From Ascidiella aspersa (taxonomy: Eukaryota): DNA of 64,000 bases. Positions 43,791-51,916 of the stretch are shown here, one piece after another (position 1 is the first letter of the stretch; every line of letters begins with the position of its first letter). The position numbers and the translations under genes are program-made. The stretch spans positions 10,354,001-10,418,000 of the forward strand of contig OZ004610.1 of NCBI GenBank assembly GCA_963924565.1. The letters are read 5' to 3'. The notes below the pieces were generated by a model that was not told the origin of the DNA, made no database searches, and was given only the letters and a program-made list of their open reading frames with translations.

Positions 43791-46700
43791 ATGAACGACC
43801 TTGATTTACTTACACACCTGCTGGTCCCACTTCCAAAATTAAGTTCAAGTCAAAAAGCTGCCGTAGAAAAAGTAAGACTGTTTTGTATAACCTATAATTT
43901 TTATTTTCAGTTAGGCTAAGTGTTTTGTAAAAGTGTAATGGTAATTCAAGAAGCAGGGCCTGTCTTACAATATTTTAATTTAGGCCAAAAAATATGCTAT
44001 GGAGCAAAGTATCAAGGACATTTTACTCAAACAAACAATCCAGCACCAACAGCAACAGATGAATTCTTTGCAAGTAATTATAGCATGTTGTTATTATTTC
44101 TCCAGAAAAAAAAAAATTATTTCTCCAGAAAAAAAACAACTAATGGCATTCATTTTTCTAGACTTCAGCACAAAAGCAACGTGCTTTGGCAATCATGTGT
44201 CGAGTTTATGTTGGTTCCATTTACTATGATGTCAAGGAAGAAATGGTGCGTGATGCATTTGCTCCTTTTGGACCCATTAAAAGCATTGATATGTCATATG
44301 ACCCCATCACTCATAAACACAAGGTTTGTTATTATTGAGTTACAGTAAAAAGGTTTGGCGCTGGTCTAGAATCCTTCCACAATTATTAAATCAACACACA
44401 ATATTTGGGTTAGGGTGTGAGTTAGTGTTTGGGTGTGGGTGGGTCAAGTACTATTATATTAATTATTTAATAATAACATTTGACCCACCCTAACCCAAAA
44501 CGCTAGCCCTAACCAAAATATTGTGGGTTTTGGTAGAATTGTAGACCAGCGCCAAGTTTGATAAAAAAGTTTGATCCAAATTTATAGGTTTTTAGTATAT
44601 GGAAATACATCTAAATGGCCAAAGATTTTTTTTAAGGGATACTGTTTCATTGATTACGAAATTCCAGAAGCTGCCCATGTGGCAACTGAACATATGCAGA
44701 CTAGTCAACTTGCAGGTTAGCCAATGCTTTTTTAAATGGTTGCATTTAATATATAAACATATTTGATGTTTGCTATTACAGGTCGTTCAATTAAAGTGGG
44801 TCGACCAAGTAACATCGGCCAAGCACAACCAATAATCAATCAGTTAGCTGAAGAATCAAAGCATTATAACAGGTAAATCTTAATAAAGTAAAAAAAGTGC
44901 CTTTATTGAGATTGTACAGAAAACTGTGAGCTAACCACTGGGCCACATTTCAGAGTGTATGTGTCATCAATTCATCCAGACTTGGAAGAGGCAGATTTGC
45001 GTTCCGTATTTGAAGCGTTTGGTAAAATATCTAATTGTAGACTGGACCGAGATGCGTTGAGCCGCCGACACAGAGGATATGCATTCATTGGTTAGCAGCA
45101 CAATATTTTAAATGTTTAAAATCCAGGTGAATGTTTTTAAATTTTAATGATTGTCAAATCGCAGAATATGAGAAGCTCCAGTCAGCACTGGATGCTATCT
45201 CCAGCATGAACATGTTTGATTTAGGAGGTCAATACTTGCGAGTCGGAAAAGCCATAACACCCCCGAACACCCATTTTGAATTGGTAAATAAGTAAATTTA
45301 AAGGAAAATAGTCTGACAAGTTCCTGTTTTAACATTTTGTCTTATTTAAAGCATGCAACACCAAGCAATGCATCCTCGTCAATGCCGGCAGCTGCTGCCG
45401 TTGCTGCAGCGGCAGCCACATCAAAAATCTTGGCTCAGGAAGCAGCAAAACCCCTACTACTTTCCCAGCACATTGTTTCAAACACATTGCCAGGCAAGTG
45501 CTATATAAACTTACTTAATACGTCAAACTTGTTTTTGTTTATAGATTGTAAATACAAGTTACAGCATCGTTAAATAATTTTTTTGTTGTGCAATATGCGC
45601 CATATTTACATCATTTAAATCAATTGTGTTAAAAAGTTTTTAAAAAATCTTAAGCATTTTTTGGTTGTTTATTCAGGTTTCAATAAAGTTGGTCATGCAA
45701 ATGGAGGTTCAAATTTAATGATGCAACAATCACTTGCTCCTACAGCTGTAATGGCTGCCAATCAAGCTGGGGTGGTAACTGGTATGTTTCTAAACATTTA
45801 AATATATGCAAACAACCCTGAACCATATTTACATAGGCGGTAAATCTCAATTGGCAGATTTTATTATTTTCTAATCCAATTCTTCATTTTGTGTTTCTTT
45901 ACTGTTTGTTTATTGTGTGATCCAAATTCCTGTCCCCTAAATCTCCCACAACTCCAAAACCAACCTGAATTCCACCCAAACCACCCTTAATCCAAATGAT
46001 TCCACCCCTTCCAGTATCCCTAAAGCACCTCCATTACTTACCTGTTCAAAGTGCAGTCGGCAGCTGAAAACGTCTCTCAGCTAGTAAGTGCCGTCGTGGT
46101 GGTAGCCTTTTTATTTTATCTGCATCTTCCAGCACCTAGAGACGCATTCGTTAAACCTATAAACTAACAGGCGTAACCCCAGCAAGCGGGGCCAGCGGTT
46201 TTCACAGCACACAGGCTCCTGCCAAAACAACGACTCCACAGGTGGTTCAATGTAATGTACAACTATAATCTGGTGTCAATTTAATTCTTTAAATGGCTAT
46301 GCAAAATATAAGTACCACATTTCAATAATGAAAATATAAAAAAGTAACGTGTTACGTAAATGAATACGTTTTGGCTAAATTAATGTTGTTATGAACTTCT
46401 AATTTCCTTATATAAATTGTATACTTACACTTTATTGTGTGTTGAGTTTTAATCAGTGACCTGCTGTGTCTAACAGTTACTTTAATTTCACTAATACGTC
46501 GGTAAATGCGGAAGCGTGGGTTGTCTATTACATTTAGCAATCCAGTTTAAACGGTTGGCAACTTTGCCGTTTCCACAGAGTCGAGTCATGGCGTTGCACA
46601 ACATGGTTCAAGTTCAAGACATCGATGAGGATCTTGAGGGTGAAGTAACCGAGGAATGTGGAAAATTCGGCGCCGTCGAAAAAGTTATAATATACCAAGA

Positions 46701-47694
46701 GAAACAGGTAGGGGCCGTTTCTCTGTTAAAACTTATTGCAATTTGCCTCAACTCAAACCTCGCCTGTTGTGACTCAAAAGTCCCAAAGGAAATAGGTAAT
46801 TTTGTTTCCGCATATACCCTGGTGCCCGTCAATCAATTCTGCCTAATACGAGCTTGCTATCACCTTTAACCTTGAGTTTGTATTTGTCGCTGAAATTAAA
46901 TGAAATAAATTATCCCTCCCTGTTTGTTGGTTAACAGTGTTTTTTCTCAGGATATGTTCAAATTTCTCGCTAAGAATAAATTATTTCGAACTCCTCTGTT
47001 AAAAAAATATAGGTGGATGTTGTTTATTCATGTTCCGTTACGCAGTATGTACCACGCCATTTTCATAAGGAAATGTGGTTCGCGCTAATGTGCCTGTTGG
47101 TGCCAGCGTACTTAGATGTTGTACAATTTGCTTATTTGTATTGGAAGTTACGAAATCCGTGATCTTAGATTTCGAAAGACTCTGGTACATCGTATTTTCA
47201 AAATCGCAAGGAGAAAATCAAACTTATGTTTCAATAAAAAATGTTATATGATGCTCTTGTGTAGCAATGCTGATCAAGCACGATTTTACAAGCGGTCTAA
47301 ATTTGAAATTCGTCGCCTTACCACACGAGCACTATTATATATTTTCTTCATTAACGAAAACCTAACGTTTTCTTGTGTAACTATCATCGTCTAACGTTAC
47401 ACAAACCGTCGCACGTGACAACAATGTAGTAAGTTTTGCCCGACCGCGAAAGAAAAACAACCGAAACTGTTGGCAAACCGAAAACCAAAGTGACGCGCTA
47501 ATGTTCTATTCTTTCGTCACAAGGGCGAAGAGGATGACGCTGAAGTGCTCGTGAAGATCTTCGTCGAGTTTGCGGCCAACGAGGAATGCGACAAGGCGGT
47601 GACGGCGCTTAACGGAAGGTGGTTTGGCGGAAATCGCGTCACGGCCATTCACTACCCGCTCCAGCGCTACCTCGCCAACGACCTGAGTGCCTAA
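43791..47694 (+). CDS. PUF60: Poly(U)-binding splicing factor PUF60 (2 RRMs + UHM)
   Basis: Exons 43791-43871, 43984-44073, 44162-44323, 44637-44715, 44782-44872, 44954-45090, 45165-45283, 45352-45493 (GC donor), 45677-45781, 46171-46241, 46579-46707, 47524-47694. Motifs [95 protein letters not shown]. Confidence 0.94.
44357..44553. mobile_element. Palindromic MITE, GCGCTGGTCTAGAATCC family
   Basis: ggcgctggtctagaatcc ... tagaccagcgcc, with an internal gggttagggt/accctaaccc inverted pair. Confidence 0.75.
46015..46083 (+). other. Candidate poison (PTC-containing) cassette exon in PUF60
   Basis: ccttccag|...|gtaagt, 69 nt, in-frame TGA at 46065-46067 when joined to the exon ending at 45781. 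Preceded by an AG-free stretch, 45858-46012. Confidence 0.6.
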
Positions 47695-49188: not shown

Positions 49189-51916
49189 TTAGCAATCTAG
49201 AAAGTTGGCAGCCATCAACAACTCCAATGCGATTTCTGGTGTAATGCAGAATTCTGGTATCTCTGTTGAACTGTTGGTGTATCGCACTTTGTAGATAAAA
49301 TATTGGCAAACCTTTGCAAGTACATGTGACCTACGCAAGAACAAAAATGTATTACATTTAAAAAGATAACCTTAGGCCACAAGACAATTTGAAATAGTTA
49401 CATCCTAAAAATATTGAACATACCTTCTACAGTGTTGAAAACGAATACCTATACTATGTTGGATACCAAGGTAAAATTGACCTCATTAGTCATTAGTAAA
49501 GCACATGAGTACAAAAGTTCTGTCAGACCCTAGTTCCGTGTTTCTCAGCCTTTTATGGCTAGCGGCATCCCTACAAGATTTTTCCGCAGGTAATTCACTA
49601 TAATGTCACAATAAAGGAACTAGAACAACACACAAACTCTACACAACGTAGGAAGTTATAATTGGATTTATTCCACTCTAATATTTACGTTGTTAGAGTT
49701 GAGCAAAAATCAGATTCTCAAATATCTCTGGGCACCCTTGAACATTAGAAATGGCACCCCAGTTGAAAACCACTATTCTAGCTACTTGCAGTCGGCATTG
49801 TGGTCCAAAATAACATAGTATAAAGTCTATTGCAAACAATATAACACTATGTGTGTTTTTGACCTCATAGCTCCAATATTTTATTTTGTTTTTGTTGCAA
49901 AGTTTTGCTAGTACAAGATTATTAGCATCAACTCAAAACCAGTTATCACTGTGCTCTAAATCAGTGTTACACAAACTTTTGCCACTTGCGGCACACCTCA
50001 AAAAATATATCCAAAATGACGATAAATACTTGGCTAACTGTCCAATACAACGGATGGAGGAAAGACTGGGTATGGTTGAATGAGGCAGAGGTGCACACAC
50101 ACAAAAAATATTTCTGGTTTACTATAGAAATGGATCAATATGCAGGCTATTGGAAAAACATATTCCCTGGTAAAAGTTTTGGGTTTGTATCTGTTATCAT
50201 CTGCCTCACAAAATAATCATAATGATACTAATTCCATAAGAGTTTTAACAGAATCCTTAAAAAAGCTGGTATTCGTATATTACCTATAATTGTAATGTGA
50301 TTTTAAATAGTTTTAAGTATATATAAATTTAAAGTTTCATTCAGTAAATGAACAAAAAGTGTTCAAATTAATTACAAATTTTAAGTTTATTGGTTTTGAG
50401 GAGTGACAATGAAAGTGTTCGACATGTTTATTTTAAAGCTGTATATTAGTAAACGATATTTAAATTTATTAAGTGAATAAATAAACAATACTTTAATTTT
50501 AGCTGTGTAGGAATATGATAGTTTTATTTTTGTGTGGAAAATAATTTGTCCTATTTATAATAATTCACCTCCAGGGGTATTGAAAACCTAATCCTAATTT
50601 TTTAATGTTTAAAATGCAGTCAAACAACAAGGTTTAATGTTTCCTAATATTGACCAAAACCGTGCATAACTTTTGTAGTTTGTCTAAAAGAACAAAAATA
50701 TTTGACTGCTAAAAGTCAGATATAAATGCTGTGAGTCGTTGTCTAATGGACCATCAGCAAGCAACAAATTCATTTTGTCTGAATGAAAAGTATAAAAATT
50801 CTAAAAGGTCCAGAAAGACTTGTGCACATAGCCATTCAGTTCTTTAAAGGGGTTTTCTATAGCAAATACAAATTACTCTTGGTATATTTAATAGTACTGT
50901 TATGGGGCATCAGGAAAACACACTTTAATGATAATTGTTAGAACAGCTTGGCTTTATAAATTATTCAAAAGCCTAGATGATAAATTTAATGACACCTTAA
51001 GCATCTGAAGGTGAGTGCTGTATGATGTACACTATTTTAAAGATGGCAGCACTGTAGGTTTGAACAATCTTAACATTAACAGACAAATTAATTTCCTGTA
51101 CTAACTGATGTAAGTTAATTTTTTCATGGGCTATGTCTAGACTAGATGCCAGAAATGCAAAAAAAAAAAACGAAGTCAAGATTTGTATTAACATATAATT
51201 ACATGAGCATCACACTTACGGGATTTCCCGAAAAGTAACTTCATTGGTTTCATTTTCTGCAAATTGACCTGGACCGCTCAACATTGATTTGATTGTTCCA
51301 GATGTCAGTGCATAATCTCTTTTGACAATAAACTCATGACCATCTGATGAGACCAACCTCACATACATCGAGTCAGCCCCTTCACACCCACCAAACTCCT
51401 CATCTAGTAACAAAAACATTAATATAATAGACATAATCCAGGTGAGAAAGTAAGGCCTGATAAATCCCTCACGCAGTTTCTCACTCGGTCGCATTCATAG
51501 CCGCATGTTCACATAAAATGCAGTCAGCGGCGAAAAATCACTCAAACGAGCAAAACTTTTGTTGCACTAACAGTTTTTGGTAGAGTACTCAATTTTCAGC
51601 CGCGCAAATTTTACAAATAACGTAAGCCGATGTTTTGGATAAACAAATATTAACAAAAATTGATTCCTATATATACTGTGGTTTCAAATCTTTAGATATG
51701 GAATATCATTTTCAGATATTCAACTTTGATTATAAAAAAGTAACACAAATATATATATTTCTATGAAAAGTTTAAGCAACAATATTAGGAATATTTATTT
51801 GTCTATAAGCACATATTTAACATCCACAAATGTCAGTTACTCCCTCTATGTTTTCAATACTAAACGGAAAACATGCAAAAGAGTTATTTTTAATTACCTT
51901 GTTTTTCTTCAGCCAT
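49189..51916 (-). CDS. ELOC: Elongin C
   Basis: Exons 51916-51898, 51403-51220, 49330-49189: [35 protein letters not shown]...[74 protein letters not shown]. Confidence 0.97.

Follow-up and report, generated by a model that had tools for sequence, protein, structure and literature searches.

The window analysed here is a 64,000-nt stretch of the Ascidiella aspersa genome (G000:C4:10354001-10418000), and it carries on its + strand a gene of 12 exons that together give a 458-aa open frame. Since exon 3 finds PUF60 proteins in protein searches, with the top matches in Clavelina (87%) and Phallusia (88%), and since exons 3 and 12 match RRM_1, the gene is the ascidian PUF60, as an earlier note on this DNA had proposed; the alignment to tunicate PUF60 agrees with this. 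RNA joints are present for 11 of the 11 introns. The third RRM, which we take to be the UHM of PUF60, begins near residue 361 of the frame. The stretch 45780-46180, around intron 9, has a single match in the organism's own genome, namely the window itself. Intron 9 is single-copy and no strong internal repeat was found in it, and on these grounds a repeat origin of the unit described below was rejected. Allele differences in the PUF60 region are too few for measuring constraint.

Several other features of the window were observed. Intron 3 holds a MITE-like element at 44355-44555, a nested inverted repeat with 28-nt arms at 86% identity and an X1 depth thousands of times the single-copy level. 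Two exon-like open frames on the - strand, 49189-49371 and 51216-51494, lie tail to tail with PUF60 and presumably belong to Elongin C. Exon 10 joins the UHM exon directly (46241 to 46579), and a segment of about 30-45 residues beside the UHM, ending ...HLIMQKLMRKEE, is absent here; Ciona, Clavelina, Styela and vertebrates keep the segment, and it is missing in Phallusia and, by tblastn, in the second ascidian described below, which is likely a lineage-specific exon loss.

Table 1. Features in and around intron 9 of the Ascidiella aspersa PUF60 gene (window coordinates; a slash marks the end of an exon)
Feature	Position	Strand	Basis
Intron 8, GC donor, spliced out, outside the conserved unit	45494..45676	+	RNA junction
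Exon 9, ends V-V-T-G, phase 1, donor CTG/GTATGT	45677..45781	+	RNA joints 45493 to 45677 and 45781 to 46171; tunicate PUF60 alignment
Intron 9, 389 nt, partly retained	45782..46170	+	RNA
First in-frame stop upon intron 9 retention, 341-aa product	45799..45801	+	Translation
AG-exclusion zone, 155 nt	45858..46012	+	Sequence
Predicted distal branch point TTCTAAT, A 45874, 140 nt from AG	45869..45875	+	Sequence; counterpart A 2129 in second ascidian
U/UG-rich tract, 58% U, predicted PUF60/U2AF65 landing site	45876..45920	+	Composition; 58% U in second ascidian, 61% U in fish locus
G-poor C/A-rich spacer, C 44%, A 34%, G 3%	45936..46012	+	Composition; similar make-up in second ascidian and fish locus
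Proximal branch-like heptamer, A 45990, 24 nt from AG	45985..45991	+	Sequence
Cryptic (decoy/poison) exon candidate, 69 nt, CAG acceptor	46015..46083	+	Sequence; counterparts 2204-2246 in second ascidian, 87-188 in fish locus
Exon core common with second ascidian, 19/23 columns, same reading frame	46026..46047	+	Alignment
10-nt match TACTTACCTG to U1 snRNA positions 2-11, antisense to 5' splice site	46035..46044	+	Own-genome U1
In-frame TGA, 352-aa product	46065..46067	+	Frame of exon 9
Cryptic donor CTA/GTAAGT, -1/-2 not matching U1	46084..46089	+	Sequence
Exon 10	46171..46241	+	RNA joints; acceptor comparison
Intron 10	46242..46578	+	Retained at lower level in one run (X3), not in X5

Intron 9 lies between V-V-T-G and V-T-P, a junction common to vertebrate proteins, and it contains an ordered set of elements (Table 1) that the earlier note had read as a poison exon with a distant branch point. 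A check of the sequence bears out this part of its description: the 155 nt of 45858-46012 contain no AG, TTCTAAT lies where it was placed, the acceptor CCTTCCAG with its last letter at 46014 is followed by the 69-nt exon-like stretch and by GTAAGT at 46084, and the TGA at 46065 falls in the reading frame of exon 9. Judged by sequence only, an internal pair of splice sites thus flanks a stop-bearing exon. The AG-free zone is rare, not unique. The 528 kb of strand sequence contain 26,502 AG-free gaps, of which 6, with this one, have at least 155 nt and 14 have at least 140 nt; a gap of 155 nt or longer occurs in 3 of 1,328 intron-sized tiles and in 11 of 5,000 dinucleotide shuffles of intron 9. 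The proximal heptamer sits at the usual distance from the AG and is a rival candidate to the distal branch point; no counterpart of it was found in the second ascidian. As a separate observation, a U-rich tract with a CAG at 46108-46132, 38 nt upstream of the exon-10 acceptor, looks stronger than the acceptor in use; it would shift the frame if used, and no junction was seen there.

Both ways of keeping intron 9 sequence in the message would give truncated proteins, as the translated frames of retention (341 aa) and of inclusion (352 aa) stop before the third RRM/UHM. From the TGA at 46065-46067 the distances to the three junctions downstream are 16, 87 and 216 nt. By the 50-nt rule, if it holds in tunicates, a stop leads to NMD when a junction follows more than 50 nt downstream, and for the TGA of an included exon this applies to two junctions (87 and 216 nt).

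Intron 9 is retained in roughly 40% of the transcripts. Four of five RNA runs were compared with the gene; the stretch 45450-46720 was covered in two of them, from two studies, both untreated for NMD: X3 is a spliced assembly whose contigs drop rare forms, and X5 consists of raw stranded reads, of which about 6% were read, giving 29 reads on the stretch with joints of fewer than 3 reads hidden. In X3 a single contig, at a depth of 63, covers exons 1 to 9, and at its end the graph forks into the joint 45781 to 46171 at a depth of 22.2 versus a whole-intron contig (45753-46199 unspliced) at 17.6, so that 44% is retained if the depths are comparable. The corresponding depths for intron 10 are 34.8 spliced versus 8.2 retained (19%). 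X5 has 4 reads skipping intron 9 and an intron depth of 3.5-7.7 over 45794-46051, all on the sense strand. Over 46052-46094 the depth drops to 1.4, and over 46095-46137 it is 0; no reads lie inside introns 8 and 10, nor over most of intron 11. Because the reads in intron 9 come from the sense strand and reads are lacking in introns 8 and 11, we rejected genomic DNA or unspliced precursor as their source. An antisense gene using the U1-like decamer as its donor was also rejected, as opposite-strand reads are absent there.

The inclusion of the 69-nt exon, which the earlier note had envisaged, was not seen: neither a junction at 46015 or 46083 nor a half-spliced form of intron 9 occurs in the two untreated, shallow runs, where joints of fewer than 3 reads are hidden, and the visible alternative to splicing is retention of the whole intron. 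The GC donor that the note had reported at 45494 does open intron 8, by sequence and by RNA junction. Its use as a part of the switch was rejected; it is incidental, since the second ascidian has GT at this place and intron 8 is removed in both runs.

The layout of the unit is found again in the same intron of a second ascidian. We scanned metagenomes and obtained at least 19 PUF60 loci, while scans of prokaryote and viral contigs gave none. Three of these loci (L022-L024) represent one other ascidian, and the first of them, L022, shares with the window 14 of 39 four-fold sites. Four further loci (L025, L027-L029) are intron-free PUF60 open frames, three of them within genomic-looking contigs of 7.6-10.7 kb. 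Intron 9 of L022 has 1,395 nt and bears the unit near its 3' end. The branch motif (A 2129) comes first, then a tract with 58% U and the C/A spacer, and behind the CAG at 2202 lie a 43-nt exon and the donor G/GTATG. The branch A is 74 nt from the AG and the AG-free zone has 82 nt; the motif of the unit is followed by more U, and by a longer stretch before an AG, than any other of the 14 branch-like motifs in this intron. The cryptic exon at 2204-2246 is frameshifting and stop-bearing. A near-perfect donor, CAG/GTAAGT, was also seen at 1835-1845 of L022, upstream of the conserved unit, and could possibly belong to a second cryptic exon or a recursive site.

Primary-sequence conservation of the exon amounts to a core of 23 columns in the two ascidians. 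The best local alignment between the two introns pairs 46026-46047 of the window with 2218-2240 of L022 (19 of 23 columns) and starts 14 nt behind the L022 AG, and the two cryptic exons have a common reading frame with H-L-x-Y-L-P. By itself this intron-intron alignment is not significant (254 of 1,000 shuffles), and the alignment with the exon named in advance is borderline (49 of 3,000; 19 of 1,000; 2 of 280 genome tiles).

A locus that we judge to be teleost-type by its protein (L030) shows the same arrangement. Its contig opens inside a 61% U tract, so that the branch point and exon 9 are unseen; a C/A spacer and a CAG at 85 follow, the AG-free zone being at least 84 nt long. The 102-nt exon behind it (87-188) reads Val-Ala-Ser-stop, has the donor CCA/GTGAGT and lies 463 nt before the V-T-P exon. 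The exon core of 46026-46047 was not found in this fish locus. A 12-nt identity between the spacers of the window and the fish was set aside, being barely beyond what composition gives (344 and 121 of 5,000 within-spacer shuffles). As a caution, the window spacer also gave a match out of position, with a score of 28, to a different portion of the fish intron.

We wrote the layout as a rule, which asks for a sequence free of AG in which 36 nt, U making up at least half of them, precede a G-poor C/A stretch, and for a YAG behind it; the thresholds were chosen after seeing the window, L022 and L030. The strict rule matches the window unit and L030 and misses L022, with 0 matches in 400 kb of the own genome. 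The relaxed rule also gives 0 matches in these 400 kb. On the two strands of the window (128 kb) it matches twice, once at the unit and once on the opposite strand. From the metagenome loci 15 of the 19 were taken (136 kb, four duplicates being left out), and they yield 2 matches, each of which falls in the orthologous intron and in the sense orientation. The loosest rule gives 4 matches in 400 kb. As the background comes mostly from the window's own genome, the rate for fish is uncertain. Taken together, the sequences indicate that the unit (U tract, C/A spacer, YAG, short stop-bearing exon and GT donor) recurs in two other chordates, and the conservation that the earlier note had looked to is found as layout, in the second ascidian and the teleost-type locus and in the same intron. 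Three species form the basis of this comparison, and the RNA comes from Ascidiella aspersa only.

Database proteins offer a further view of this junction. The junction motif occurs in 172 of 264 proteins, 124 of which continue normally and 48 do not. Among the latter, 43 begin with Gly and were set aside as uninformative read-throughs or model errors; the other 5 start with a residue other than Gly and hence need another acceptor. Four of the 5, all predicted gene models, end soon: zebrafish X6 and Leuciscus with Val-stop, and Ciona F6QGB1 and Lampris with Asp and a tail, that of Ciona containing L-I-Y-I-P. From three amniote-like read-through proteins an intron length of 159-198 nt can be deduced, which is probably too short for the unit. 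A protein search with exon 9 and its read-through tail gave no matches.

The explanation towards which we lean is that intron 9 holds a conserved cryptic exon acting as a splicing decoy, read by PUF60 as a negative feedback; that the decoy causes the retention and that the loop closes on PUF60 are parts that we infer. PUF60 would bind the U/UG tract and load the U2 snRNP at the distal branch point, and the AG-free spacer would lead to the cryptic AG. An exon-definition complex on the small cryptic exon could then compete with the real sites of intron 9, including the weak exon-10 acceptor. Such a complex would mostly stall, giving retention, and would sometimes be completed, giving a poison exon and NMD. 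High PUF60 would thereby lower the full-length PUF60 mRNA, because retention and inclusion both lose the UHM.

Evidence of several kinds points to this decoy. Retention is seen in two runs from two studies and is specific to intron 9 in X5, and the relaxed rule finds nothing in 400 kb and two orthologous introns among 15 loci. The branch motif of the L022 unit is the one with the most U and the longest AG-free run behind it, and the alignment falls 14 nt behind its AG despite 14 of 39 four-fold identity. The four short database models use another acceptor, and the fish locus reads Val-Ala-Ser-stop. The features of the unit agree with those upstream of PUF60-activated exons, whose AG-free zones are longer, whose branch points lie farther away and whose tracts are rich in U/UG, according to the available parts of PMC6093180, PMC7969005 and PMC13751310. 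Cryptic exons in retained introns are described, in the accessible sections of PMC6097662, as yielding skipping, NMD or retention and as possibly leaving no junctions in untreated cells.

Other results speak against it. No junction at 46015 or 46083 appears in the low-depth RNA, the weak exon-10 acceptor could cause retention by itself, and intron 10 is retained in X3 too, where it has no such unit. The intron-intron alignment is matched by 254 of 1,000 shuffles, the off-position fish match has a higher score (28), the strict rule missed L022, and the comparison has three species. The amniote-like intron of 159-198 nt is probably too short to hold the unit, and the published decoys lie mostly in introns of more than 1 kb (PMC6097662, available sections).

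A plain cassette poison exon, the core idea of the earlier note, is another reading, and we regard it as unlikely. Here the 69-nt exon would be efficiently included and its product destroyed by NMD, with retention as a slow intermediate or by-product. The in-frame TGA 87 and 216 nt before later junctions, the stop-bearing counterparts in L022 and L030, and the zebrafish and Leuciscus models ending in Val-stop are all consistent with this, and NMD would mask the product in untreated RNA. RBM39, a U2AF65-family paralogue of PUF60, offers a precedent. It limits itself via a poison exon, 2b, whose donor can be hidden by a stem-loop, as far as the available text of PMC10477243 describes it. Against a cassette exon stand the abundance of the fully unspliced intron and the lack of any inclusion junction or half-spliced form in the two runs.

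Retention could also come from weak terminal sites, in particular from the poor tract before exon 10, the unit being a protein platform or a chance low-complexity alignment and no exon; we consider this improbable, somewhat as the cassette exon is, and a shade more so. The exon-10 acceptor has 10 pyrimidines in 20 positions, the fewest among the 12 acceptors compared, and both introns flanking exon 10 are retained in X3. Short retained introns are reported to be mostly decoy-independent (PMC6097662, in part), and about half of the human AG-free zones of at least 100 nt may be due to chance (PMC1431707, in part). What argues against weak sites as the whole cause is that three species have the ordered layout with its YAG and GT donor in the same intron, versus a background of about 1 match per 260-500 kb.

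It is very unlikely that transcripts end within intron 9, by an alternative last exon or intronic polyadenylation, and give a stable UHM-less PUF60. Such an ending would fit the fall of the X5 depth to 1.4 and then 0 over 46052-46137, the H-L-x-Y-L-P frame common to the window and L022 with L-I-Y-I-P in the Ciona tail, and the four database models that stop shortly past the junction. The X5 gap, however, depends on about ten reads and the peptide is not kept in fish; the X3 contig spans the whole intron into exon 10, there is no pile-up of read ends, and neither AATAAA nor ATTAAA occurs in intron 9 of the window or in the fish stretch.

The earlier note had also proposed that a U1-like decamer forms a hairpin with the exon's own donor and competes with U1. 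The match itself stands, since TACTTACCTG equals positions 2-11 of the own-genome U1, and it has one occurrence in 528 kb and turns up in 1 of 5,000 shuffles of the intron. The U1 snRNA genes were seen as a tandem array at G000:C5:29506522-29578111, with at least 42 genes at a period of about 1,193 nt. The hairpin did not hold up: 7 bp with the donor are possible, folding z values are -0.38, -1.04 and -0.24 for three stretches, the pairing probability with the own donor varies from 0.00 to 0.35 with the stretch folded, and the pairing is not kept in the second ascidian (0.0). Folding and conservation led us to reject a donor-sequestering stem-loop of the RBM39 SLi type. We also rejected pairing between the decamer and the exon-9 donor, the duplex being possible, never top-ranked and at a probability of 0.0 in context. 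A gate by which the decamer pairs with either 5' splice site is thus highly improbable in spite of the rare perfect 10-mer and of the L022 stretch still two edits from U1 that forms a duplex of -12.4 kcal/mol with the L022 exon-9 donor, for in both ascidians each donor has a better partner than the decamer, a 9/10 match is present at another place in the L022 intron, and no such match occurs in the fish stretch.

Returning to the decoy reading, the unit would be an element of a known kind, akin to the SF3B1, OGT and ARGLU1 decoys and the RBM39 poison exon, and the PUF60 case would be new. In the available sections of PMC6097662, the decoys of SF3B1 intron 4, OGT intron 4 and ARGLU1 resemble it in the heavily retained intron of a splicing-factor gene and in the conserved stop-bearing cryptic exon, rarely or never seen spliced in untreated cells. 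The PUF60 unit differs from them in its host introns of 389 nt here and 1,395 nt in L022 (mostly more than 1 kb there), in being conserved as layout and not as near-identity, in being known from sequence and untreated RNA, and in its distal branch point and long C/A spacer. With RBM39 exon 2b it would have in common a factor-dependent weak 3' splice site; unlike RBM39, where inclusion is seen, it shows retention, its hairpin is unsupported, and its cryptic exon comes late in the gene, before the UHM (PMC10477243, in part).

Among PUF60 targets, GANAB exon 6 and OGDH exon 4b similarly have a long AG-free zone, a distant branch point and a U/UG tract (PMC6093180, PMC7969005, both in part), and the 155-nt zone of the window belongs with the AG-free zones of at least 100 nt that have a branch motif and a pyrimidine tract at the 5' end, a class described in part of PMC1431707. 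Those exons, however, are coding exons of target genes; the mean branch distance of PUF60-activated exons is about 52 nt versus 140 nt in the window and 74 nt in L022, and here a C/A-rich spacer parts the U tract from the AG (PMC6093180, in part). We found no literature on PUF60 regulating its own splicing, with subscription papers and supplements possibly bearing on the point. In the accessible text, the stem 'autoregulat' is absent from PMC6093180, PMC12911328, PMC10154236 and PMC13751310 and occurs in PMC13034450 in a reference only. The supplement of PMC12911328, which covers annotated exons, does not have PUF60 as its own target among the best 32 of 50 name matches; the available parts of PMC11327330 name a human PUF60 exon without description, and those of PMC13183682 deal with other targets.

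PUF60 is dosage-sensitive, with a deficiency syndrome (PMC6093180, in part), and is a cancer dependency (PMC12911328, in part). If the decoy reading is true, this intron, with 389 nt and about 40% retention, would be among the smallest decoy-exon systems and convenient for dissection in a minigene. It would allow distal branch points and U/UG tracts to be tested directly as sensors of PUF60, for which the zebrafish isoform is pointed to as a second test case, and it would be a regulatory element missed by sequence alignment and caught by a layout rule. We tentatively suggest, as a possibility that falls short of our leaning towards the decoy itself, that PUF60 may have a self-limiting switch predating the tunicate/vertebrate split, in which a compact decoy exon with its distal branch point, U tract and C/A spacer would serve as the sensor, kept as layout and not as sequence in ascidians and teleosts and apparently shed in the shortened amniote-like introns.
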